Assembly: GCF_054482595.1 (NCBI RefSeq)
Contig: NZ_CM137008.1
Length of the DNA: 64,000 nt
Reading direction: 5' to 3' (one strand)
Numbering within the stretch: the first letter of the stretch is position 1; each line of letters begins with the position of its first letter. The position numbers and the translations under genes were made by a program. Shown piece by piece: positions 11,775 to 33,662 of the stretch. The notes beneath the pieces are model-generated. The model made no database searches. It was not told the origin of the DNA and saw only the letters and a program-made list of their open reading frames with translations.

Positions 11775-13136
11775 TTACTGCTGATGTTTAAGGATAAATT
11801 GACCTTTCGGCGCAACAGGGAAGCCCTGTTCAATGTCGTAAATCACATCACCACGTAAGATGGTTTTCGTGATACGCGCGCCAATGGTACGGCCAACATA
11901 CGGGCTGACTTTGTGGCGATATTCCAGATCGTCATTGGTAAGAACATAGCTGCTATTCGGCTGAATGAAGACGAAGTCGGCATCTTTTCCTGGGGCGATA
12001 CGGCCTTTTTGCTGCAGACCGAAAATATCTGCTGCGTTAGTCGCCATTAATTTGCCGAACATTGGCAGAGACATTCCGCGTTTCTGTACCGCTTCATCGA
12101 ACATCACGTCCATACAGTTTTGCAGACCGGCAATACCGCCCCATGCTTCCATGATGTTGCCGGCTTTCATTTCCGGAGGGCATGGTGAGTGGTCGGAAAC
12201 CAGGCAGTCGATTTCACCGTTAAACAGTTTTTCCCACATGCCTTTCTGGTTTTCCAGATCGCGGATCGGCGGTGAACACTTCGCCAGAGTACCGATTTCT
12301 TCGAACTGATCGGTATCCAGTACAAAGTAATGCGGGCAGGATTCACAAGTAACGTCCTGACCTTCCTGACGTGCACGAGTCACTTCTTCAACGCCTTCCG
12401 GGCTGCTGATATGGCAAACGTGCAGACGGCAACCGGCAACTTTCGCCAGATACAGCACGCGGCGAATCGCTTCCACTTCGGTAAATACCGGACGCGAAGC
12501 CACATAGTCATGGGCAGTTACGCGACCTTCACGTTTCGCTTCTTCGCCCAGTGCGTCACAGATCAGCGCGTTTTCGCAGTGCACCAGCACCGGCTGCCCC
12601 AGTTCGCCCAGCTTCTGCGCACCTTTGAAGAACTGCCAGTCGTTTACATCACGGAAGTCGTTGTCGATACCGCGATCGCCACAGGTCGCAACGAAGCATT
12701 TGAAGCCGACAACGCCCACTTCATCCAGCTCATGCAGACGGTCGATGTTGTAAGACACCAGGCCACCGAGTTGTGCCGCATCGATAGTCAGCTTGCCTTT
12801 AGCGGCATCGAACTTCAGTTCAATTGAAGCGCGGTCAACCGTTGCAGGCAGCTGGTTGAGCGGCATTTCGATCATGGTGGTGATACCACCTTTTGCCGCT
12901 GCGCGAGTACCGGTTTCATAACCTTCCCAGTGGCTACGACCCGGTTCAGAAATATGGGTGTGCGCATCAACCATGCCCGGCGAAACCACCAGACCAGACG
13001 CATCCATAACTTCTTTTGCATCGCCCAGATCCTGACCGATAGCAGCAATTTTGCCGCCTTTAACGGCGATATCTACAACGCGAGCTTCGTTTTCTAAAAT
13101 AACGGTGCCGTTTTTAATGATTAAATCAAAAGACAT
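11775..13136 (-). CDS. allB: allantoinase
   Basis: 453-aa ORF; cyclic amidohydrolase HxH motif (DAHTH). Confidence 0.92.
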
Positions 13137-13195
13137 AACAAACTCCTTGTAAAATACAGATTGGTTTTTAACTCAATGTTCAATATCGGGATTAA

Positions 13196-14650
13196 TTAAC
13201 CTATGGTTTTTTGCTCTCCTGTTTTTTCTGCTGTTGTACGTTTCTTTAATAAGGCGTAGGCCGCAAAGGCGACGATGACGCCGACAAACCATGAAACACG
13301 CGATAACGGTTCCATTAAGGGAATAAACTTACCGCCAAGAGATAAAATAACGGCCACCAGAGTTACTGAAAACGCGGTGAGGTTAAAACCGTTATCGTAA
13401 TATTTATAATCGCCAGGTGCGGTGTACAGTTCATCAAGATTAATTTGCCCACGCATCACCACAAAATAATGCGCCATCATGACACCAATTACCGGCCCCA
13501 GCATTCCGCCGATAATATCGAGGAACAGATAAATACTGTCCTGATTTTCCATTAATTTCCACGGGCAGATCAGCAGACTGATAATACTGGCAATCAGTAC
13601 GCCGTTTTTATAGGTCAGTTTTGTCGGTGCAATGGCAGCAATCTGATAACCGGCCGGAATAATATTACCGGTGGCGTTAGTGGAGATAGTCGTCATCAGA
13701 ATAACCAGTACCGCAAAGAACGAGGCGAACAAGCTGTCCCAACGCTGAACAATATCCAGCACGTTCCAGGTGTCAGCGCCGTAATGAATACTGGCTCCGG
13801 CAATAATACATACCCCCGCGACCGCAAACAGAATATAGGCCACAACTAAACCCAGCGTTTGCCCCAGCGCTTGCTCACGAAACGAGTGGGCGTTTTGCGT
13901 AAAGTCGGATGCGCTCACCGCCGGTGCCGCCCAGACCGCAACTACCGCGTTAATCACCACCAGGAACAAGAATCCACTGTTTTCTGCTTTCTGAATACCG
14001 CTCGGAATGTAGTCAAAGATTGGACCGAGCCCGACCAGCGAAATCGCCCAAATCGCCATACCGCCGAAAACGATATAGATGCACGGGTTAAGAATGGCAG
14101 TGAATTTATTTAAAACTTTGCCACCGCCAAAACCTATACCAACGTTGACCAGCCAGAAGAGTAAGAAAGTAATTAAGCCCGGTAGAGAAAGGCCTAACAG
14201 AGTGAAATCACCACCGAGAGTCAAAAATCCCGGCCAGATTTTGCCAATCAGAATCAAGCAGGCCAGTGACCCTGCGTAACATTGCAGGCCAAACCACATA
14301 ATGGCAGCAATACCGCCTCTTAATAATCCGGGAAACAGTGCGCCACGTACGCCGTAAGAAGCACGCAGGATCATGGCAAACGGTACGCCGTATTTACTGC
14401 CCGCAGCACCGTTTAATACCATTACCGCGGCAATGAAAAAGGCGCTGAGGATAATTGCCAGCATAATACTAAAGGTAGACAAGCCGAGAATAAAAAAGCC
14501 GCCGACCATCACATAATTGGGAACGTTATGAACCGAACCCATCCATAAGGTAAAATAGTTAAATGTTTTCCAGGTCCGCTGGCTTTGCGTTTTCGGCAAT
14601 AGATCTTCGCTATAGCCGCGTTGCTGGAATAGTTTTCTCTGATGTTCCAT
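13196..14650 (-). CDS. ybbW: allantoin permease (NCS1 family)
   Basis: 484-aa polytopic membrane ORF; synteny. Confidence 0.9.
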   Translation of the reverse strand: MEHQRKLFQQRGYSEDLLPKTQSQRTWKTFNYFTLWMGSVHNVPNYVMVGGFFILGLSTFSIMLAIILSAFFIAAVMVLNGAAGSKYGVPFAMILRASYGVRGALFPGLLRGGIAAIMWFGLQCYAGSLACLILIGKIWPGFLTLGGDFTLLGLSLPGLITFLLFWLVNVGIGFGGGKVLNKFTAILNPCIYIVFGGMAIWAISLVGLGPIFDYIPSGIQKAENSGFLFLVVINAVVAVWAAPAVSASDFTQNAHSFREQALGQTLGLVVAYILFAVAGVCIIAGASIHYGADTWNVLDIVQRWDSLFASFFAVLVILMTTISTNATGNIIPAGYQIAAIAPTKLTYKNGVLIASIISLLICPWKLMENQDSIYLFLDIIGGMLGPVIGVMMAHYFVVMRGQINLDELYTAPGDYKYYDNGFNLTAFSVTLVAVILSLGGKFIPLMEPLSRVSWFVGVIVAFAAYALLKKRTTAEKTGEQKTIG

Positions 14651-14787
14651 AAATCCCTCTTAATTTCACGTATCGAATAACGTTGTTTTAATCTAGCTAT
14701 GAGGAACAAATAAAATAAAAATATTATTTTTAATACTGAAGCAACATCTTTGGCTGCTTTCTTTTTTAATATTGCTGGCCGATTCAT
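14509..14787 (-). CDS. ybbV: small hypothetical ORF overlapping the ybbW 5' end (ybbV-like)
   Basis: 92-aa ORF, lysine-rich, AT-rich region; coding status doubtful. Confidence 0.3.
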   Translation of the reverse strand: MNRPAILKKKAAKDVASVLKIIFLFYLFLIARLKQRYSIREIKRDLWNIRENYSSNAAIAKIYCRKRKASGPGKHLTILPYGWVRFITFPIM

Positions 14788-14818
14788 TTTCTGATATCGG
14801 CCATTTTTATTGCGGGTA

Positions 14819-15697
14819 TCAGGCCAGTTTATGATTCGCCATTAATTCCAGCGCCTGCACTAACGCAGAGTGATCCAACTGGCTGCCACCGTTTGCCGCA
14901 CAGGTATTAAATAACTCCTGGCAGGTCGCGGTGTTTGGCAGGTTCAGCGCCAGTGCCTTCGCACTTTGCAGTGCCAGGTTGAGATCTTTCTGGTGCAGCG
15001 CAATTTTGAAACCTGGATTAAAGGTGCGTTTAATCATACGCTCGCCATGAACTTCCAGAATACGTGAGGAAGCAAAGCCGCCCATCAGCGCCTGGCGCAC
15101 ACGTACCGGGTCCGCACCGGCTTTTGAAGCAAATAGCAGGGCTTCAGAAACCGCTTCAATATTGAGCGCCACGATAATCTGATTTGCCACTTTGCAGGTT
15201 TGACCGTCGCCGTTACCGCCCACGAGGGTGATATTTTTACCGAGCAATTCAAACAGCGGTTTAACACGTTCAAATACCGCTTCGTCGCCGCCAACCATAA
15301 TCGACAACGTCCCTTCACGCGCGCCGATTTCACCGCCGGAGACTGGCGCATCGAGATAATCACCACCCAGTTCATTCACCTGACGAGCGAAACGTTTAGT
15401 TTCAATCGGTGAAATGGAGCTCATATCAACAATGGTTTTGCCCTTCAGCGAGGCTTTGGTACAACCATTTTCACCAAACAGAACTTCTTCAACCTGAGGT
15501 GTGTCCGGCACCATAATAAAAATGATGTCCGCTGCTTCCGTTACCTGGCGCGCGGTGTCGACATTAACAGCACCGAGTGACAGTAATTCATCAGCAACCG
15601 GTCCAATGGTCGTGACATGCAGTTGATGACCGGCACGCGCCAGATTAATGGCCATCGGTGTACCCATAATGCCTAAGCCAATAAATCCCAGTTTCAT
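14819..15697 (-). CDS. glxR: tartronate semialdehyde reductase
   Basis: 292-aa ORF, N-terminal GxGxxG NAD-binding motif (MKLGFIGLGIMG). Confidence 0.9.
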   Translation of the reverse strand: MKLGFIGLGIMGTPMAINLARAGHQLHVTTIGPVADELLSLGAVNVDTARQVTEAADIIFIMVPDTPQVEEVLFGENGCTKASLKGKTIVDMSSISPIETKRFARQVNELGGDYLDAPVSGGEIGAREGTLSIMVGGDEAVFERVKPLFELLGKNITLVGGNGDGQTCKVANQIIVALNIEAVSEALLFASKAGADPVRVRQALMGGFASSRILEVHGERMIKRTFNPGFKIALHQKDLNLALQSAKALALNLPNTATCQELFNTCAANGGSQLDHSALVQALELMANHKLA

Positions 15698-23152: not shown

Positions 23153-23644
23153 TTACTCTGCACAAGCATCAGGCAATCCAGCTCCAATATTTGTTATAAA
23201 ATAATGCGTAACATTAATTTCACCAACAAAAAAAAGATTTACGCTATCCCCTTGCCCTGGTATTTTACCATATTTACACCACACTTTTTTTGTATCTGGA
23301 TCATTCTTTGATACGATTTTCGCCACTTGTTCCCTGGCCCTCACCGTCAATGTTTTCTTAAACCTCCCCCCATCATCGATTGTTAGGGAAAAATAAGAAA
23401 AAAAATAATCATCTTCTACATTTGTGGATATTGATATATCCACCGCTACGTGCGGAAAAAAATCTGGGAGCCATGTAAAAACTCCATCATTTTCTGGTAT
23501 TGCCATATAGTTTATGTAATGCTTACTTACAAGAGATTCATCTTTGTGTAAATAAAGATAAGTAGTCACGCATAAAAAAACAACGATTATAATAGCAAAA
23601 ATAAATATTACCATCTTTGAGATGTTACTTGAGATAGCCACCAT
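23153..23644 (-). CDS. putative Rhs immunity protein, N-terminal membrane anchor
   Basis: 163-aa AT-rich ORF whose ATG lies 20 nt inside the rhs 3' end; hydrophobic N-terminus ([15 protein letters not shown]). Confidence 0.7.
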
Positions 23645-26600
23645 CTTGTAAAGCCTTTATCGTTTTTTTATGCTCTGGATTAATATAATCAATACATCTA
23701 TTTGAGCAATCTTGTGTTAATGGACATGTCAACCCATGTTCATTTACAGCCAAGTCTTTTTTATTATCTTCAATCATCTCAGAATGGGATAACTTTACTT
23801 TTCTGCCGTACATACCGAACATATTTAACCCGTAATCTCTAATCTCTTTTTCATAACCCAGCCCTTTCGCCGATCGGCTAACACCAGCGTCATTTAATTT
23901 AGACACTCGACAAAATGCCATACAATGGAAAAATTGATCAGTCCCACCTAAATTTAATCTCTTCATATCATCATAAGTATCAGATAATATATCCCATGCT
24001 CTTTGATGGTTTAGTTGTTCTTTTTTTCGCATTAACGCTACATCTGCAGGACTTAACCCTAATGGATCAATACCATTCACCGGATACGCATACAGACTCC
24101 ATCCCCCCGCCAGCCCAATCGGGTCCTGAGTAATATATCGTCCCAGCAACGGATTGTAGTACCGGTTCCGGTTATAATACAGCCCCGACTCCTCATCATA
24201 CTGCTGCCCTGGCAGACGGTACGGCTGATACACATGATGCGGGTTCTCCTCATTAAGCTGGTTGCCCCATTCATCATATTCCGCGCTCCACGCCGTATTG
24301 CCGTCTTCGCTGATAAGCGCCAGCGGCAGTCCCCGGTGGTCGCAGTGATAAAGATGAGCTTTTCGCGCCGGTGTGTATTCCGGCTCCACCTGTCTGGCCA
24401 GTTGCTCCACCGTCAGCCCGCACTGCGCAAGCCACGCCCGGCTTTCACTGCTCACGCGGTCTGCCCGGATTTCTTCCTCCAGTCTGTCCAGCAGCCGCAC
24501 CAGTTCAGCCGGAAATACCACGCCGTGCCCGTCCTCGCTCCCTTCCTGCTGCAGCTTCTCCGCCAGGCTGCGGCGCTGCGCTTTCTCCCGCTCGCCGTTG
24601 TCTGTTTCGATGCGGATGAGCGGCGCGAAGCTCCCCGGCTGATATACCGTCTGGATACGCGTGGTGTCGGTCTGTACCGTCGTCAGCCGGTCGCCGTCCC
24701 ACCCGTACCACGTCACCTCCGGTTTCCGCGACAGCGACATCCATCCCGTCAGGTCACGCTCGCGACGCCACACCCGTTTCCCTGTCCGGCGACCCAGCGG
24801 GTCGTAAAGGTATCGGCTCTCGACCAGCGGCTCCTCATATTGGATACGGATGTAATGGACCAGGCGGTGCAGGCTGTCGTAATGGTAGTGATGGGTGCGC
24901 TCGTCGTCCGTCCGTATCACACCCGCCGGGATGCGGTCCGTCTTCTCCGTCAGTCTGCCGTATTCATCGTAGTGGTAAACATAGTGCGCATCCTTCGCGA
25001 TGCGGTTATCCGGCCACACTGTGAGGGTACTGTCCGGGTGCAGCTCCGGGTCCGGCAGGCGGTTTCCCGCCGGGTCGGTGGCATACGGGATGCGGATGTC
25101 CAGGTCCGGTGCGAGGGTACGCACGCTCTCCAGCCTGCCCGTGGCGCTGTAGCCGTATTCCCGCGTCTGTCGCGGGCCGCTGATGCGCACCAGGTCGCCG
25201 TTGTCATTCCACCCGTAGTCACGGTCATACACCAGGCTGTTCAGGTGCTGGCTCTGTAACTGGCCTGCGGGGGTGTATGTGCTGGTCAGTTTATATGCGG
25301 CATTACTGCCTGCCATGCTGCCAAAGCTGCGCACCGTCTCCCGGTGCATGCGGTCGCGCGTGTACTCCAGCAGCGGCGTGTCGCCAAGCTTCATGCCCGC
25401 CAGATAACCGCTGCCGTAGGTCAGCCACTCCACCGGCGGCAGGCTGTCCGGCGTGACGCGGTTTGCCAGCCCCTGTTCGTTGTAGGCGTGTGTTGTCTCA
25501 TGCTGCCACAGCAGTTCCCCCGTCTCCGGGTTCTCCACCGTCTGCCGTTCGCCGGTCAGGCGGCCCTTATCGTCGTAGCCGTAGTGGACAGCGACACGGT
25601 GGCCTTCGCTCAGGTGGCTGATGTCTGTCAGCCAGCCGTGGTCATCATACTGCCACTGCTCTGCCGGTTCGCCGTTCACCGTGCGGTGAGTGATACGGTC
25701 CGATTCATCGTAGTACCAGAGGGTGACAAGCCCCTCATCTTCACTCTGCGTGAGTTTTCCGGTCAGGTCATAATGATAACGCTGCGTCCGCCCGTCAAAG
25801 CCGCCCTGCTGTACCAACCGGTCCAGCGCATCGTAGCTGAAGTCGCTGTGGCTGCCGTTCTCGTTAGTCAGACTGATGACACGTCCGGCAGCATCGTACT
25901 CCATACTGCGCGTCAGCCCGCCCTGCGTGGTGCTGACCGCCTTTCCCCACGCATCGTACTGTGTCTCGCTCCGGTTGCCGTCCGGGGTGATAACGGCAGT
26001 CAGGTCGCCTGCGGCGTTGTACTCATACTGCGTTTCACGGCCCTGTGCGTCTTTCACCGAGGTTAACCGGCCACGGTTGTCATAGTGGCGGTAAAGGCTG
26101 ATACCTTCCTCGCGGTGAACCGCCGTCATCTGGCCGAAGCGGTCGTATTCATAGCGGGTCTGGTAGCCCGAGCAGTCGGTGAACGCCAGCAACTGACCGT
26201 AGCGGCTCCACGTCATCTGCCGGGTGCTGCCCGTCGCATCTGTTGTCGTGGCCGGTAATTCACTGTGCGCATCATCATAGCGGTAGCGTACTGTCTCCCC
26301 GCTGCGCGATGTCTCCGTTACCAGCCTGTCCAGTTCATCATATGCCCGGCGGCTCTCCAGCCCGTCCGGGGACACCACCGCCGTCAGCTGGTTCCCGTCG
26401 TTATAGTAAAATTTCGTCTCCCGCCCGTCCGGTGTGGTGATGTCCGTGATATCGCCGGACACCACATTCAGACCGTACTCTGTCCGCCGTCCCGCCGCGT
26501 CCGTCTGCGCCGTGAGCCTTCCTGCCGCGTCATACCCGCTGTGCGTGACGCTGCCATCCGCCAGTTCTTTTTTCACCACCCGTTTCAGCCCGCCTTCACC

Positions 26601-27827
26601 TTCTGTATGCAGCACCTCACGCCGGTTCAGGCTGTCGGTGACGGTGATGCGGTCCTGCTCATACTGGTAGCGGTAACTCAGGCCTGCCGGGTTAAGCTGC
26701 TCCACCACCCGCCCGGTATCGTCGTAGCGGTAGCGCATCTCCGGCCTTCCCGCATAACGGTGCCCCACCATCCGGCCCGGGTGCTGCGCGTCATACGTGA
26801 AAGCGCGCACCTGTGTCCCGCTGCGGTCATATACCGCCAGCAGTTCACCGGCTTCCGTATACGTGTACCGCGCCAGTGGCGCTCCGGGCAGGCTCTCCGG
26901 GTATGCCGGGTCGTGCATCAGCCACACCGCCAAAAGGCGGATACCCCTGTCGGGGCCGTATTCGGTACCGGGCAGTGTGTCGGGGAACGCTGAGGCTGAG
27001 AGAGGGCGGGGTGTGTCAGGGGAAGATAAGGAAGCGGTGCGCTGTTTACGGGCCTCTTCCGCACGCTGCGCCTGCGTGGTCAGCACCAGACGGAACTCCC
27101 GCCCGGCACCGTCCGTCACGCCGGTGATTTCCCCGGCCAGGTCACCGGCGGCCTCACGCCGGTACGTCAGCGTCCGCCCGAAGCGGTCTGCCAGCCCGGT
27201 AAGCACCCGGTACGGCGGCAGCGGCGCTGGCAGTACGTCCTCAGCACCCGGCACCAGCTCTGACCACCCCAGTATCCACCACGGCCCCTGTGCGCTGTTG
27301 GTCGCCAGGTAAAGATGCGGGCTTAACCGGATATCCGGCGGCAGCGACGCCCACAGCCGTGCCAGCGTATGGCCGTCCGGCTGCGTTGCCTTACCGCCAC
27401 GCACCAGCCACAGGGACTCGCTGCGGCTGTACACCGCCTCACCCGGCAGCAGCGGCTCAAAGTGAATGCTCCGTCCGCCGTTGTCGTTGAGTACCAGTGC
27501 ATCATCGCGTATCTGTAAGCGGATATCAGAAGGCGCTTTCCAGCCGGGGCCAAAAATCCCCACCGGTGCAGGCGTCTTCGTCCGGTAGCTGCTGTAGGTG
27601 CGGGAGAGAATGAACGGCAGCGGGCCGGGCAGCGCAAGGTCCGTCTCGCCGGGCAGCACCTTCGCCCCCAGCAGCGGATTTACCGGGTTGCCCGAAGTCA
27701 TCCCGCCCGGACACACCGAGCACGCCACGCCAGTTGGCGCGCCAATTCTTACACCTGCCGAACCCTGGACAATGGGACCGCCATACTGAGTCATATCTCC
27801 CTGACGCGCCGCTGGTTTTCCGCTCAT
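23625..27827 (-). CDS. rhsD: Rhs-family polymorphic toxin: PAAR-like N-terminus, YD-repeat core, variable C-terminal toxin domain
   Basis: 1400-aa ORF; many YD repeats; core ends at [10 protein letters not shown] (about 24045-24060) followed by about 143 aa of AT-rich unique sequence; sits between ybbP and selU. Confidence 0.92.
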
Positions 27828-28256
27828 ATAAAGTGCCCTTTTAGTTATTGTTCATATCCCTGTGTTAGCAACAAAAAAAATAAAATGACACACAAGACCA
27901 GCTAATGTATTTATATATTTTTCACATAAACTTATTTGTTCTCAATCAACAACAACTGTTATTACAGGTCACTTTCAATATTTTATTAAACTAACATTTT
28001 TAGCACAGATGAATTCATCATCAACAAATTCACTATATGGATAATATCCATTCAACGCATATGATTTATGATTTTATTAGTCTGAGTTATTTTTGTAGGG
28101 CTATATTTAAAATCAATAAACTCCACCGATTCAGATTAATATCAGCAATAGAAAGATAGGAAATCACCAATTCAATAACATCATCAATGAAACATATTGT
28201 AGAATTAATTTAAACAAGGCGTTCCATTCAACCAGAACGCCCCTTATTTACTCTCA

Positions 28257-30671
28257 TCACCCCGCAAACTGCCTGAACAGCGCCTTACCCTTAACCAGTC
28301 GCGCACCCAGCCAGCCGCCGAAAAGCGACAGCAGCAGCGCTCCGCTGCACGGCAGAACAATCCACAATCGCCAGTCTGGCTCCCACGGAAAATCAAACAC
28401 TTTCGCCTGCAACACTGCCAGCGCCGTTTCCGCACCAATTGCGGCCACCAGGCCGGAAACAAACCCAAGCATGGCGAACTCACACCACAACGTGGTACGC
28501 AGCAGTTTTTTCCCCGCACCGAGTGTGCGCCACACCACCAGCTCCTGGTGGCGCTGACGCATACCCACCTGCACCTGTGCCAGCAACAGCAACATACCGC
28601 AGGCGGTGACCAGCACCACCATCACCTCCAGCGCCCGACTTACCTGCTCCAGCACCTGACCGACCTGTTTTAAAATCGCGCCAATGTCTAACAGGCTAAT
28701 GGTCGGGAACTGGCGGTTGAGTTGCGTCAACATGCCGTTGCCATTCTCCCAGCGGAAACTGGTAAGCCAGCTCTGCGGTTGCCCGTCTAATGCCCCTTCC
28801 GGGAAAATAAAATAGAAATTAGGCCGCAGACTTTCCCAGTCCACTTTGCGCAGGCTGGTCACTTTAGCGCGGAACTCCTGGGTATCGCCCATAAAAGTCA
28901 CGGTATCACCGAGGGCAACCTTTAAGCGTTTCGCCAGCCCCTCTTCCATCGACACTTCATCGGCTTTTGGCGGCCAGTTACCGGCGACAATCGGATTATG
29001 ATCGGGCCGCGTATTTTGCCAGGTAAGATTGAGTTCGCGGTTAAGCGCCTCATCTTCATTACCTTCTGTCGGCTTATCGTTAATCGCCGTCAGCCGCGCC
29101 CGCACCACCGGATAAAACGATTCCGGGACTATCTGATGTTCCGCGAGGAACGCTTTTAGCGGTGCTACCTGTTCTGTGGCGATGTTAATTAAAAAGTAGT
29201 TCGGGCTTTCTGGAGGTAGCTGCTGCTGCCAGCGGTCGAGCAGATCACCACGCAACACCAGCAGCAGTGCCAGCAGCATAAAGGAGAGCGAAAATGCCGA
29301 AAGCTGGCTTAACGTTGACCACGGCTGACGTAACAGGCGGCTGACCGCCAGGCGCAGAGGCAGCGATTTCAGCGTCATGCGGCGAAGTACATTCAGCAGC
29401 ATCCAGCCCAGCACACCGCACAGCAAAGCCAGTACTACCGCGCCCGCCAGCACCGCCCAGAGCAGCATACTGCCCCCCATTAATCCGGCGAGCAGCAGCA
29501 CAACCACTACACTGACAATCGGCAGATAAAACTTCAGCGGCCAGACGTTCGCTACCACATCATTACGTAATACGCGTAAAGGCTGCGTTGCCAGCAACAA
29601 GCGGTATGGTCGTAGCCCCACCAGCAGCGAGATGACCGTCATGGTGCCCAGCGCCCATAGCCACGGCCAGAGGCTGGCTGGCGGTAGTGCAGCAGGCAGA
29701 ACGGGCTTGAGCAGCACCATCAACACGTTTTCGAACAACAGGCCTATCGCCCCACCGGTAACGGCTGAAAGCGTCAGCACCATCAACCACTGACCGACGA
29801 TTAGCTTACGCAGTTGCGCTCGCCCTGCCCCCAGCGTTTTGAGGATCGCCACCAGATCGTAGCGACTGCGACAGTAATGATTCATCGCTACCGCCACTGC
29901 TGCCACTGCCAGCAGCAAGGTCAGAAGCGCCGAAAGCAGCAGGAACTGTTGCGAGCGTTCCATCGATCGCCCCAGCGCGCCTTCGTCCTGTTCCAGACCG
30001 TACCAGCGTTGTTCGGGTTTAAGCTGGGGTAACAACCATTTCTCATAGCCGTCGAGCTGGTTCTCGTTGCCGCCGAATTTATAACGCCAGGTGACCCGAC
30101 TCCCCGGCTGCACGGCTCCGGTTTTATCGACATCCGCCAGATTCATCATCAGACGCGGAGCCATCTGGAAGGGGTTAAAACCGGAATCCGGTTCCTGAAT
30201 CACTTCTCCGGCAATCCGCAAGGTGGCATCGCCCACGTCAATGGTGTCGCCCGTTTTCAGGTTAAGCAGCGCCATCAGGCGTGGGGCCAGCAATACGCTG
30301 CCCGCCTGCGGTTTCAGGCCAGGGGGATTAGTTTGCAGATCGCCATACATCGGGTAGATATCATCCACCGCTTTGACGTTCGCCAGCTGCGGTGTGTCGC
30401 CTGCAAATGTCATGGTGGCGAAAGTCAGCTGCTTGCCGACTTTCAGGCCGCGCTTTTGCGCTTCCTCCAGCCATGCTTGCGGCACTTCGCGCGAACTGCG
30501 CAACGCCCGATCGCCCGCCATAAACTCCCGGCTTTGTTGGCTTAAGCCCTTCTCCATGCGATCGCTGATATTGCCCAGCGCCAGCACGCAGGCCACCGCC
30601 AGGCTTAGCGCCAGCCAGACAATTAATAGCGACGGCGAACGCCATTCGCGCCAGAACCAACGTGCAATCAT
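28257..30671 (-). CDS. ybbP: ABC transporter permease, FtsX/MacB-like
   Basis: 804-aa membrane ORF; 4-nt overlap with upstream ybbA. Confidence 0.9.
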   Translation of the reverse strand: MIARWFWREWRSPSLLIVWLALSLAVACVLALGNISDRMEKGLSQQSREFMAGDRALRSSREVPQAWLEEAQKRGLKVGKQLTFATMTFAGDTPQLANVKAVDDIYPMYGDLQTNPPGLKPQAGSVLLAPRLMALLNLKTGDTIDVGDATLRIAGEVIQEPDSGFNPFQMAPRLMMNLADVDKTGAVQPGSRVTWRYKFGGNENQLDGYEKWLLPQLKPEQRWYGLEQDEGALGRSMERSQQFLLLSALLTLLLAVAAVAVAMNHYCRSRYDLVAILKTLGAGRAQLRKLIVGQWLMVLTLSAVTGGAIGLLFENVLMVLLKPVLPAALPPASLWPWLWALGTMTVISLLVGLRPYRLLLATQPLRVLRNDVVANVWPLKFYLPIVSVVVVLLLAGLMGGSMLLWAVLAGAVVLALLCGVLGWMLLNVLRRMTLKSLPLRLAVSRLLRQPWSTLSQLSAFSLSFMLLALLLVLRGDLLDRWQQQLPPESPNYFLINIATEQVAPLKAFLAEHQIVPESFYPVVRARLTAINDKPTEGNEDEALNRELNLTWQNTRPDHNPIVAGNWPPKADEVSMEEGLAKRLKVALGDTVTFMGDTQEFRAKVTSLRKVDWESLRPNFYFIFPEGALDGQPQSWLTSFRWENGNGMLTQLNRQFPTISLLDIGAILKQVGQVLEQVSRALEVMVVLVTACGMLLLLAQVQVGMRQRHQELVVWRTLGAGKKLLRTTLWCEFAMLGFVSGLVAAIGAETALAVLQAKVFDFPWEPDWRLWIVLPCSGALLLSLFGGWLGARLVKGKALFRQFAG

Positions 30672-31354
30672 GCTTCCTCCTGCAACTGCCCGTTCACCAG
30701 CCGTAAGCAGCGGTCGCAGCGTGCCGCCAGTTGCAGGTCGTGGGTCACCATAATCAACGTGGTGCCATGTTCACGGTTGAGGGAAAACAGCAGGTCGGCA
30801 ATTTTATCGCCCGTCTGGCGGTCAAGGTTGCCGGTGGGTTCGTCGGCAAACAGCACATCAGGTCGACCATTAAAGGCTCGTGCCAGCGCCACTCGTTGCT
30901 GTTCACCGCCGGAAAGCTGTGCCGGAAGATGATCCAGACGTTTACCCAGCCCTAACTGTTCGAGCAACGCTTTCGCCCCGTTACGACTTTCCGCGCTACT
31001 CTCACCGCGCAGCAGAGCCGGAAGCTCGACGTTTTCCAGCGCGTTAAGGGTAGGAATTAACATAAATGACTGAAAAACAAAGCCGACGTGCTTCGCGCGC
31101 AACTTTGCCCGCGCTTCTTCGTCCATATTATGTAGCGGTTGTCCCACCAGACTCACTTCGCCACTGCTGCCGTCATCAAGCCCGGCGAGGATCGCCAGCA
31201 AGGTTGACTTACCCGATCCCGACTCGCCCACCAGTGCGATGGTCTCGCCACGTTTGACAACCAGCTCAACTCCGGTGAGGATGGAGAGTTCATGCTCCCC
31301 CTGACCGACGGACTTCTTAAGATGATGAACTTCAACAATGTTTTCCGCTGGCAT
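30668..31354 (-). CDS. ybbA: ABC transporter ATP-binding protein
   Basis: 228-aa ORF with Walker A GESGSGKST and LSGGEQQR signature. Confidence 0.9.
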   Translation of the reverse strand: MPAENIVEVHHLKKSVGQGEHELSILTGVELVVKRGETIALVGESGSGKSTLLAILAGLDDGSSGEVSLVGQPLHNMDEEARAKLRAKHVGFVFQSFMLIPTLNALENVELPALLRGESSAESRNGAKALLEQLGLGKRLDHLPAQLSGGEQQRVALARAFNGRPDVLFADEPTGNLDRQTGDKIADLLFSLNREHGTTLIMVTHDLQLAARCDRCLRLVNGQLQEEA

Positions 31355-31948
31355 TTGCCCTTCCTGTTCCTGGTCCTGTTAACCTTCCGTGCCGCCGCAG
31401 CGGACACGTTATTGATTCTGGGTGATAGCCTGAGCGCCGGGTATCGAATGTCTGCCAGCGCGGCCTGGCCTGCCTTGTTGAATGATAAGTGGCAGAGTAA
31501 AACGTCGGTAGTTAATGCCAGCATCAGCGGCGACACCTCGCAACAAGGACTGGCACGCCTTCCGGCTCTGCTGAAACAGCATCAGCCGCGTTGGGTGCTG
31601 GTTGAACTGGGCGGCAATGACGGTTTGCGTGGTTTTCAGCCACAGCAAACCGAGCAAACGCTGCGCCAGATTTTGCAGGATGTCAAAGCCGCCAACGCTG
31701 AACCATTGTTAATGCAAATACGTCTGCCTGCAAACTATGGTCGCCGTTATAATGAAGCCTTTAGCGCCATTTACCCCAAACTCGCCAAAGAGTTTGATGT
31801 TCCGCTGCTGCCCTTTTTTATGGAAGAGGTCTACCTCAAGCCACAATGGATGCAGGATGACGGTATTCATCCCAACCGCGACGCCCAGCCGTTTATTGCC
31901 GACTGGATGGCGAAGCAGTTGCAGCCTTTAGTAAATCATGACTCATAA
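31322..31948 (+). CDS. tesA: thioesterase I / lysophospholipase L1 (GDSL hydrolase)
   Basis: 208 aa from ATG 31322 (MMNFNNVFRW); signal peptide then GDSLSAGY; ORF track extends 10 codons upstream. Confidence 0.9.
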   Translation: MMNFNNVFRWHLPFLFLVLLTFRAAAADTLLILGDSLSAGYRMSASAAWPALLNDKWQSKTSVVNASISGDTSQQGLARLPALLKQHQPRWVLVELGGNDGLRGFQPQQTEQTLRQILQDVKAANAEPLLMQIRLPANYGRRYNEAFSAIYPKLAKEFDVPLLPFFMEEVYLKPQWMQDDGIHPNRDAQPFIADWMAKQLQPLVNHDS

Positions 31949-32747
31949 AGCAACGGAGATCCTGACAGGTAAAGTTATGCAAAAATCGGTCTTAATTACC
32001 GGATGTTCCAGTGGAATTGGCCTGGAAAGCGCGCTCGAATTAAAACGCCAGGGTTTTCATGTGCTGGCAGGTTGCCGAAAACCGGATGATGTTGAGCGTA
32101 TGAACAACATGGGATTTACCGGCGTGTTGATCGATCTGGATTCACCAGAAAGTGTTGATCGCGCAGCAGACGAGGTGATCGCCCTGACCGATAATTGTCT
32201 GTATGGGATCTTTAACAATGCCGGATTCGGCATGTATGGCCCCCTTTCCACCATCAGCCGTGCGCAGATGGAACAGCAGTTTTCCGCCAACTTTTTCGGC
32301 GCACACCAGCTCACCATGCGCCTGTTACCCGCGATGTTACCGCACGGTGAAGGGCGTATTGTGATGACATCATCGGTGATGGGATTAATCTCCACGCCGG
32401 GTCGTGGCGCTTACGCGGCCAGTAAATATGCGCTGGAGGCGTGGTCAGACGCACTGCGCATGGAGCTGCGCCACAGCGGAATTAAAGTCAGCCTGATCGA
32501 ACCCGGTCCCATTCGTACTCGCTTCACCGACAACGTCAACCAGACGCAAAGTGATAAACCAGTCGAAAATCCCGGCATCGCCGCCCGCTTTACGTTGGGA
32601 CCGGAAGCGGTGGTGGACAAAGTACGCCATGCTTTTATTAGCGAGAAGCCGAAGATGCGCTATCCGGTAACGCTGGTGACCTGGGCAGTAATGGTGCTCA
32701 AGCGCCTGCTGCCGGGGCGCGTGATGGACAAAATATTGCAGGGGTGA
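31938..32747 (+). CDS. ybbO: short-chain dehydrogenase/reductase
   Basis: 269-aa ORF; TGCSSGIG NAD(P)-binding motif. Confidence 0.88.
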   Translation: MTHKATEILTGKVMQKSVLITGCSSGIGLESALELKRQGFHVLAGCRKPDDVERMNNMGFTGVLIDLDSPESVDRAADEVIALTDNCLYGIFNNAGFGMYGPLSTISRAQMEQQFSANFFGAHQLTMRLLPAMLPHGEGRIVMTSSVMGLISTPGRGAYAASKYALEAWSDALRMELRHSGIKVSLIEPGPIRTRFTDNVNQTQSDKPVENPGIAARFTLGPEAVVDKVRHAFISEKPKMRYPVTLVTWAVMVLKRLLPGRVMDKILQG

Positions 32748-32765
32748 GTTGAAGCGCGCGCTTAA

Positions 32766-33662
<897 letters not shown>

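Follow-up and report, generated by a model that had tools for sequence, protein, structure and literature searches.

The window, a stretch of 64,000 nucleotides, holds an ordinary copy of ybbAP from the E. coli core genome. The two genes occupy the minus strand between tesA, divergent and upstream, and an Rhs protein gene downstream, where the preliminary description had placed them. Its coordinates for ybbP and ybbA and the ATGA overlap between them were likewise recovered, and the list of open reading frames gives identical positions. The features at the locus are the following.

23625..27827, minus strand: Rhs protein gene (1400 aa), downstream of ybbP
28216..28243, minus strand: terminator-like hairpin of 11 pairs, 14 nt past the ybbP stop (consensus scan)
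28257..30671, minus strand: ybbP, 804 aa, ATG start, ABC permease of type VII in one fused chain (two FtsX modules, 10 TM helices)
28635..29255, minus strand: second periplasmic domain of YbbP, from TM7 to TM8 (residues ~473-679; hydropathy and AF2 model; limits approximate)
29946..30572, minus strand: first periplasmic domain of YbbP, from TM1 to TM2 (residues ~34-242; hydropathy and AF2 model; limits approximate)
30668..30671, minus strand: ATGA, in which the TGA stop of ybbA overlaps the ATG start of ybbP (direct reading)
30668..31354, minus strand: ybbA, 228 aa, ATG start, ABC ATPase
30675..30681, minus strand: Shine-Dalgarno AGGAGGA of ybbP, within the 3' end of ybbA (direct reading)
31322..31354, no single strand: 33 nt shared head-to-head by the coding starts of tesA and ybbA, or 30 nt when counted from the second tesA ATG
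31322..31948, plus strand: tesA, periplasmic GDSL/SGNH hydrolase (thioesterase I / protease I / lysophospholipase L1; Pfam, NCBIfam and PDB)
31938..32747, plus strand: ybbO, SDR-family NADP+-dependent aldehyde reductase (annotation and Pfam)

Profile scores mark ybbP and ybbA as genuine genes. Against their NCBIfam equivalogs, YbbP reaches 1458 bits (NF041854, cut-off 999) and YbbA 478.8 bits (NF007879, cut-off 336). Pfam assigns FtsX (PF02687) to two stretches of YbbP (E=1.7e-21) and ABC_tran to YbbA. The junction of the two genes reads, on the minus strand, ...GCAGGAGGAAGCATGATTGCA, with AGGAGGA located 5 nt upstream of the ybbP ATG. As read from the sequence, translation of ybbA and ybbP is coupled through the ATGA overlap. 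The 4-nt overlap recurs in nearly all Enterobacterales loci (tblastn coordinates; best 80 loci), and in seven distant relatives the junction varies between a gap of 13 nt and an overlap of 23 nt. The hairpin past ybbP is likely the end of the ybbAP transcript, as judged from a pattern match with a weak T-tract. On the opposite side, RefSeq starts tesA at the second ATG (31325), and the tesA stop is overlapped by the start of ybbO by 11 nt. TesA is matched by Pfam Lipase_GDSL and, with 413 bits, scores over the cut-off of its NCBIfam equivalog; the catalytic residues D35, S36, N99, D180 and H183 are all present.

Architecture of YbbAP and its identity with a solved complex

The hydropathy peaks of YbbP, its two long hydrophilic stretches and the secondary structure of the AF2 model (pLDDT 82) indicate 10 TM helices and two periplasmic domains. 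No hydrophobic segment is seen by hydropathy between residues 33 and 243. In the model, domain 1 contains a mixed beta/alpha region at 55-224 and domain 2 contains strands at 492-662. The topology, with the second periplasmic domain between TM7 and TM8, agrees with that published for the protein, in which Porter and Sabre subdomains are described for the periplasmic region (PMC12646458). The preliminary description attributed one "large extracytoplasmic domain" to YbbP; hydropathy, the model and the published work all give two such domains. The model aligned to 9GE7_A with a TM-score of 0.81 over 804 columns, and the Foldseek matches that followed this entry were BceB, LolE/LolC, HrtB, MacB and YtrF. 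Domain 1 resembled in fold the periplasmic domains of LolE (5udf) and MacB (5c59, 5lj8) in the model search. Pfam MacB_PCD was found neither in full-length YbbP nor in either periplasmic domain, even at E<=10, and the family membership of these domains is therefore based on fold. BLASTP of the N-terminal half of YbbP against the C-terminal half gave a weak alignment within the TM region only (E=4e-4) and did not recover the identity of ~26% between the periplasmic domains given in PMC12646458.

All ATPase motifs of YbbA are intact: Walker A (G43-S50), the signature (L147-E151), Walker B (V167-P173) with the catalytic E172, and the H-loop (204-206) with H205. Apart from itself, YbbA finds its best PDB matches in LolD and MacB, with E values of about 1e-54 to 1e-50, and its NCBIfam ranking lists LolD, MacB, DevA and FtsE after YbbA itself. 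A separate ATPase with a fused permease, together with the Pfam, NCBIfam and fold matches, bears out the earlier assignment to the MacB/FtsX-type (type VII) ABC systems.

The system had also been called uncharacterised, a label that no longer holds: a near-identical protein has been solved by cryo-EM (9GE6-9GE8), and the YbbAP-TesA complex was identified, purified and described in 2025. YbbP of the window is identical to PDB 9GE6/9GE7/9GE8 (9GE6 chain A) at 803 of the 804 positions, over residues 1-804. The sole substitution is K584 here for N584 in the PDB entry and falls in periplasmic domain 2. YbbA matches 9GE6 chain B over all 228 residues (E=2.9e-145), and TesA matches 1IVN and chain T of 9GE8. 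The locus encodes the same system as the YbbAP-TesA of E. coli K-12, with the same gene order and with every residue named in PMC12646458 at the same number. The interface residues N138, R141, R142 and Y143 of TesA and D145, D148, R235 and R239 of YbbP are all present. The naming in RefSeq and NCBIfam, "putative ABC transporter permease subunit YbbP", is behind the literature.

In the published work (McAndrew et al., PLoS Biol 2025, PMC12646458), YbbA2-YbbP binds one TesA, a 2:1:1 stoichiometry established by co-purification and by cryo-EM (9GE8). TesA sits atop both periplasmic domains of YbbP and points its active site downward into the transporter, and D145 and D148 of YbbP contact R142 and R141 of TesA, respectively. 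The structures, determined with and without AMP-PNP and for the protein alone and bound to TesA (9GE6-9GE8), reveal a pocket on the periplasmic side, open in the nucleotide-free state and shut when the ATP analogue is bound. They have neither a central pore nor a transmembrane pathway, and mechanotransmission is the mode of action described for the K-12 protein. The complex is active as an esterase and as a thioesterase, and lyso-PG goes into the pocket of YbbAP in molecular dynamics (all PMC12646458).

Linkage of tesA and rhs to ybbAP

The genome scan for ybbAP loci used a search pattern from a seven-sequence alignment and covered the best 80 loci, all from Enterobacterales and at 69-99% identity. 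With the scan limited to these loci, distant relatives (30-43% identity) were reached by a representative search, in which the family comprises some 2600 representatives at E<=1e-30, and exact-sequence contig look-ups. In all 76 Enterobacterales species loci with upstream DNA among the best 80, tesA is divergent from ybbA and overlaps it, and ybbO is co-linear with tesA. The block ybbP-ybbA-tesA-ybbO is found in 5415 of the 5426 complete E. coli genomes. The order of GDSL hydrolase, divergent ABC ATPase and fused FtsX permease is kept in each of the seven distant relatives, Ferrimonas and Vibrio included, and these conserve the catalytic residues of TesA and the interface residues N138 and Y143. 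In one of the seven (L086), both salt bridges, between TesA 141/142 and YbbP 148/145, are changed on both sides together. No SDR gene lies beside the GDSL gene in any of the seven loci, so that the co-linearity of ybbO with tesA is confined to Enterobacterales. The preliminary description had allowed that the proximity of tesA may be coincidental and had proposed that gene order be checked outside E. coli. For tesA the order is conserved there, with the linkage reaching down to 30% identity, and TesA is a physical partner of YbbAP; coincidence is thus set aside. The synteny provides independent comparative support for the published TesA-YbbAP partnership.

The second neighbour is a different matter. 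The proximity of rhs had been called suggestive, and a functional tie of YbbAP to the Rhs toxin (its export, immunity, or lipid repair after attack) would account for the position of ybbAP. rhs does adjoin ybbP in the window, as it does in roughly half of E. coli genomes. Yet an intact junction of rhs and ybbP is present in just 2852 of the 5426 complete genomes, compared to 5415 for ybbAP-tesA, and no Rhs gene is found within 6 kb downstream in any of the 80 best loci of the species scan (E. albertii and another E. coli among them), nor in the seven distant ybbAP loci. The gene order on this side is thus not kept in other species. A strain that lacks rhs has mnmH directly beside ybbP, which identifies rhs as an insertion between the two. 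A spacer of 429 nt with 28% GC, together with the terminator-like hairpin, stands between ybbP and rhs. The Rhs protein of the window, at 1400 aa, differs from that downstream of ybbAP in K-12, RhsD, which has 1426 aa. We rejected the functional link on synteny, which effectively refutes it and leaves it a negligible probability: the proximity of rhs to ybbAP is coincidental. The single repeat found in the AT-rich spacer, a weak 22-nt pair, is probably due to chance.

Probable extraction of a membrane amphiphile for TesA, and its alternatives

[quoted passage not shown] In the nucleotide-free state a membrane-embedded amphiphile would enter the open pocket, the likeliest one being a lysophospholipid, such as the by-product of lipoprotein N-acylation. 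The binding of ATP would squeeze it upward from the bilayer into the active site of TesA, where its acyl ester would be hydrolysed, and hydrolysis of ATP would reset YbbAP. The divergent and overlapping tesA provides the third subunit. As nothing would pass through the membrane, YbbAP would be an extractor working by mechanotransmission. The term exporter, used for it previously, is accordingly doubtful, given structures without a transmembrane pathway and a proposed action of outer-leaflet extraction. Lysophospholipid recycling through LplT and Aas, the subject of PMC13170283, is an established pathway in E. coli, and since it is already present, lysophospholipids may not be the main or only substrate of YbbAP-TesA. 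The evidence in favour of a lysophospholipid is confined to simulation. The preliminary description held the substrate not to be established, and the physiological substrate is indeed still unproven (PMC12646458). A 2026 mBio paper on lysophospholipid signalling (PMC13170283) used cytoplasmic TesA as a tool only and does not mention YbbAP.

The MacB/FtsX fold of YbbAP, and the nearness of its ATPase to those of MacB and LolD, would also suit a conventional MacB-like efflux pump that exports some substrate across the envelope, perhaps via TolC. With MacAB-TolC the system shares the permease module, the Porter/Sabre-type periplasmic fold (5c59, 5lj8, 5nik) and mechanotransmission. In contrast, MacB carries a fused ATPase, whereas YbbA is separate from its permease, and MacB is a homodimer of 4-helix units that depends on MacA and TolC. 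The score against the MacB equivalog, 205 for a cut-off of 966, places YbbAP outside that family. The 27 features annotated in the 12 kb to each side include no gene for a membrane-fusion adaptor (MacA/HlyD type), and none lies beside the seven distant homologues, apart from an RND pair in L087 that is unrelated. TesA takes the docking position of the adaptor above the periplasmic domains, the structures show neither a pore nor an alternating-access path, and resistance to beta-lactams is unchanged by over-expression or deletion (PMC12646458). Such a pump is thus very unlikely. LolCDE, also of the type VII fold and with the closest solved relative of the YbbA ATPase (E about 1e-54), takes an acylated molecule out of the outer leaflet and passes it to a periplasmic partner on its periplasmic domain. 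It differs in having two separate 4-helix permeases, LolC and LolE, in place of one fused 10-helix protein, and its partner, LolA, is a chaperone and not a hydrolase, with a different mode of binding. YbbA scores 254 against the LolD equivalog TIGR02211 (cut-off 307.75), and the score against NF008639, 221, is likewise below its cut-off (360). The BceAB-type systems have the fused 10-helix permease with a separate ATPase, rank first among the structural matches other than YbbP (8s5g_A, 7tcg_A) and have a lipid-binding site in a comparable place. BceB, unlike YbbP, has only the second extracytoplasmic domain, and its partner is the membrane histidine kinase BceS; neither a histidine kinase nor a response regulator was found within 12 kb on either side of ybbAP, which sets it apart from the BceAB type.

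The extraction of an amphiphile must also be weighed against a role as a platform, in which YbbAP tethers, positions or gates TesA at the inner membrane, or against action on a molecule other than a lysophospholipid (membrane-partitioned acyl-CoA, acylated xenobiotics or other esters). Several published observations favour such a role and count at the same time against extraction: ATP does not stimulate the hydrolysis of soluble test substrates by purified YbbAP-TesA, the substrate profile of the purified complex is that of free TesA, and the deletion mutants have no distinctive phenotype (PMC12646458). TesA is itself broad in spectrum, as it acts on p-nitrophenyl esters, acetyl-CoA and nitrocefin (PMC12646458). 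Three scattered hints concerning ybbP point toward general envelope stress and not to one particular lipid, namely a mutation in a high-permeability ethanol-tolerant strain, a D54E change fixed in long-term stationary phase and up-regulation in copper-evolved lines. However, a passive anchor poorly explains why a hydrophobic pocket accessible to lipids, right under the active site of TesA, opens and closes widely in an ATP-dependent manner, nor does it sit well with the intact ATPase motifs of YbbA and with the linkage of the ATPase and hydrolase genes kept down to 30% identity. We regard these roles as unlikely.

The head-to-head overlap of tesA and ybbA

The preliminary description had placed tesA next to ybbA. 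The two adjoin, but they are more than adjacent, as their coding 5' ends overlap by 30-33 nt. The overlapping starts imply that the mRNAs of tesA and ybbA have complementary 5' ends over both ribosome-binding regions. Such an arrangement might serve as an antisense, "excludon"-like device that balances or alternates the output of hydrolase and transporter, beyond being a by-product of gene compaction, a proposal that we consider quite unlikely. No promoters were found near the starts of tesA and ybbA, either by a standard scan or by a relaxed 8-of-12 scan, and none are known. Rfam returned no RNA families at E<=1 within 27000-33000. A 2009 study of transcription start sites designed a primer for ybbA, and a ybbA product was not obtained. 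All 75 of the 75 Enterobacterales sequences retain the ATG of ybbA and the second ATG of tesA, and the overlap is 96.9% conserved, compared to 82% and 90% in its flanks. In the more distant relatives the starts of the two genes vary from an overlap of 2 nt to a distance of 121 nt, a range over which overlapping 5' UTRs may be general.

Identity and layout of the ybbAP locus

From purK to mscK, the window covers ordinary E. coli chromosomal DNA. The features at and around ybbAP are listed here.

Features at and around ybbAP
23625-27827, Rhs protein of 1400 aa, downstream of ybbP
429 nt of 28% GC, spacer between ybbP and rhs, downstream of ybbP
28216-28243, terminator-like hairpin downstream of ybbP (pattern scan)
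28257..30671, minus strand, ybbP, 804 aa, ATG start (ORF list)
30668..31354, minus strand, ybbA, 228 aa, ATG start (ORF list)
Upstream of ybbA and divergent from it, tesA, then ybbO

The preliminary description had the positions of both genes exactly right, and its placement of the pair between tesA and rhs is confirmed. So is the ATGA overlap that it reported, the ATGA at 30668-30671 being common to the stop of ybbA (TGA) and the start of ybbP (ATG) (minus-strand junction GCAGGAGGAAGCATGATTGCA). An AGGAGGA ribosome-binding sequence for ybbP lies within the 3' end of ybbA. These are not chance ORFs, because YbbP scores 1458 bits against its NCBIfam equivalog (cut-off 999) and YbbA 479 bits against its own (cut-off 336), with Pfam matches to FtsX (twice, in YbbP) and ABC_tran (in YbbA).

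The same description called the exporter uncharacterised, which no longer holds. A search of the PDB sequences with YbbP gave a single match, "Uncharacterized ABC transporter permease YbbP" (9GE6, 9GE7, 9GE8), aligned across residues 1-804 and differing at one position. Chain B of the three entries corresponds to YbbA and chain T of 9GE8 to TesA, all from McAndrew et al., PLoS Biol 2025 (PMC12646458; preprint 10.1101/2025.05.16.654284). Every residue named in that paper is found here under the same number: D35, S36, N99, N138, R141, R142, Y143, D180 and H183 of TesA, and D145, D148, R235, R239, L403 and L754 of YbbP. The Walker A, signature, Walker B (catalytic E172) and H-loop motifs of YbbA are intact. 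The ybbAP of the window is thus the YbbAP-TesA system itself, already known. The sole difference in the 804 YbbP residues falls in periplasmic domain 2, at codon 584 (28920-28922), which encodes K584 here and N584 in the K-12 protein of 9GE6. The preliminary description probably reflects the state of knowledge in a 2018 review, where the function of YbbP is still listed as unknown. Database names are behind the 2025 characterization: PDB entries label YbbP and YbbA "Uncharacterized", while RefSeq and NCBIfam (release of June 2026) give "putative ABC transporter permease subunit YbbP" and "putative ABC transporter ATP-binding protein YbbA", for example at 12458-15555 of locus L001 (NZ_CP019359.1).

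Conservation of the tesA linkage and the rhs insertion

The co-occurrence analysis with tesA and rhs that had been proposed separated the two neighbors. The ybbP-ybbA-tesA-ybbO block is found in 5415/5426 complete E. coli genomes. In a scan of Enterobacterales with one genome per species (best 80 loci, about 30 genera, 69-99% identity), tesA is divergent from ybbA and followed by ybbO at all 76 loci with upstream DNA. HMMER, run in full against 1.84 billion representatives, returned 2592 relatives at E<=1e-30, mostly of 800-850 aa. Seven of these, at 30-43% identity and including Ferrimonas and Vibrio, served as a distant set; at 7/7 loci a GDSL hydrolase gene lies divergent beside genes for an ABC ATPase and a fused FtsX permease, and the TesA catalytic residues are conserved along with N138 and Y143 of the interface. 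The tesA linkage of ybbAP is thus old and tight, and it lends independent support to the published partnership. In the distant locus L086 (3718-7505), P and V correspond to E. coli TesA R141 and R142, and K and Y to YbbP D145 and D148. Both halves of the two published salt bridges have been swapped together, as expected for co-evolving contacts.

The proximity of rhs had also been regarded as suggestive, if possibly coincidental, and the hint did not survive. The rhs-ybbP junction (probe 27300-28800) is intact in 2852/5426 E. coli genomes, the ybbP part alone matching elsewhere. None of the 80 other species loci, among them those of E. albertii and a second E. coli, has an Rhs homologue in the 6 kb downstream of ybbP, and neither do the seven distant loci. 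One E. coli lacking the element has a small dinQ-like ORF and mnmH directly after ybbP. On these grounds rhs is an accessory insertion, and its nearness to ybbAP is without functional meaning. The rhs element and its 429-nt flank of 28% GC (23625-28256) are inserted between mnmH and ybbP; ~53% of complete E. coli genomes carry the element. The mnmH-ybbP gap of the rhs-less strain GF3-3 (L093, 5258-6007) contains an annotated dinQ-like type I toxin ORF. No Pfam family was matched in the Rhs protein past the RHS core motif at residues 1158-1193.

Fold and proposed action of YbbAP

Structure prediction, suggested beforehand for the periplasmic domain, supports the MacB/FtsX-type assignment. YbbP was modelled with AlphaFold2 from 26 diverse homologues (pLDDT 82), and the model superposes on 9GE7_A with a TM-score of 0.81; the next matches are BceB, LolE/LolC, HrtB, MacB and YtrF, and the isolated periplasmic domains of LolE and MacB. 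The predicted fold belongs to the type VII family alone. In action YbbAP is likest LolCDE, which passes an acylated molecule, taken from the outer leaflet, to a periplasmic partner, and in appearance BceAB, with its fused 10-helix permease. Membership in LolCDE, BceAB or MacAB was considered, and the defining tests failed for all three. YbbAP scores under the LolD and MacB equivalog cut-offs (NCBIfam), and YbbP is one fused permease with two periplasmic domains. The annotated neighbors of ybbAP include no adaptor gene or two-component system. In one public assembly YbbA and YbbP are joined in a 1037-aa protein (P0002), a frameshift ~20 codons before the ybbA stop carrying the frame into ybbP. 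As a single member sequence it is probably a sequencing error; a 2018 MacB review describes ATPase-to-fused-permease fusions as absent from this superfamily.

In the published work (PMC12646458), YbbA, YbbP and TesA co-purified as a 2:1:1 complex, and cryo-EM resolved apo YbbAP, AMP-PNP-bound YbbAP and the full complex. The 10 transmembrane helices of YbbP reflect an ancient duplication of the 4-helix MacB-type module plus two linker helices, with periplasmic Porter/Sabre domains between TM1-TM2 and TM7-TM8. TesA caps the two domains, its active site pointing down. Without nucleotide, a hydrophobic pocket opens to the outer leaflet; once the ATP analogue is bound, the ATPase dimer is closed, the four stalk helices form a bundle and the pocket is shut. 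In simulations lyso-PG entered this pocket, partly out of the bilayer. The authors proposed that lysophospholipids or other hydrophobic compounds are extracted for hydrolysis by TesA, by their own statement still to be confirmed, and a commentary in the same journal agrees on these points (PMC12654888).

We consider this the best-supported account, YbbAP being an ATP-driven extractor that works at the periplasmic side of the inner membrane and feeds TesA. Component identity, complex formation, architecture, nucleotide-dependent opening and closing of the pocket, and hydrolase activity are demonstrated. The cargo would be a lipid of the membrane, with lysophospholipids the likeliest candidates, and ATP binding would push it into TesA. 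The main rival reading, conceivable if unlikely, accepts the complex and doubts that ATP drives lipid extraction: hydrolysis of p-nitrophenyl esters, acetyl-CoA and nitrocefin has the same profile as with free TesA and is not stimulated by ATP (PMC12646458), a knockout phenotype is absent, and the LplT/Aas recycling route exists. MacB-like efflux is highly improbable for a system in which the adaptor gene, the fused ATPase and the pore are all missing, the structures containing no transmembrane pore (PMC12646458). A role tied to Rhs, contradicted by synteny, can practically be dismissed. The question of the natural substrate of the extractor is already stated in PMC12646458 and is beyond the reach of sequence analysis.

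Three reports hint at a role of YbbP in envelope stress: D54E became fixed in long-term stationary-phase evolution (PMC7858067), a high-permeability ethanol-tolerant strain carried a ybbP mutation (PMC5907409), and all eight copper-evolved lines showed up-regulation of ybbP (PMC9219993). The D54 column (30510-30512) is at least 90% conserved among 26 diverse homologues.

The tesA/ybbA head-to-head overlap

The coding starts of tesA (plus strand) and ybbA (minus strand) overlap head-to-head by 33 nt (31322-31354), or by 30 nt from the second tesA ATG (31325), the RefSeq start. The overlap of the two operons was already noted in PMC12646458; that of the coding starts is the only unreported angle that we spotted on ybbAP-tesA. 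All 75 Enterobacterales sequences compared retain the ATG of ybbA and the second ATG of tesA, ACG stands in place of the first tesA ATG in 12, and the overlap is 96.9% conserved, compared to 82% and 90% in the flanks. Dual coding alone accounts for this conservation, since the wobble position of each gene is the first codon position of the other. A role in antisense regulation is conceivable, but unsupported and, in our estimate, distinctly improbable. No sigma-70-like promoter was recognizable for tesA or ybbA, and so each promoter must lie within the coding sequence of the other gene.

At its other end, the tesA stop overlaps the ybbO start by 11 nt (31938-31948). In the distant relatives ybbO follows tesA at 0/7 loci, compared to 76/76 in Enterobacterales. 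In the Vibrio locus L088 (2426-4310), a FabV-type enoyl reductase gene, another lipid-metabolism enzyme, stands beside the GDSL gene in the place of ybbO.
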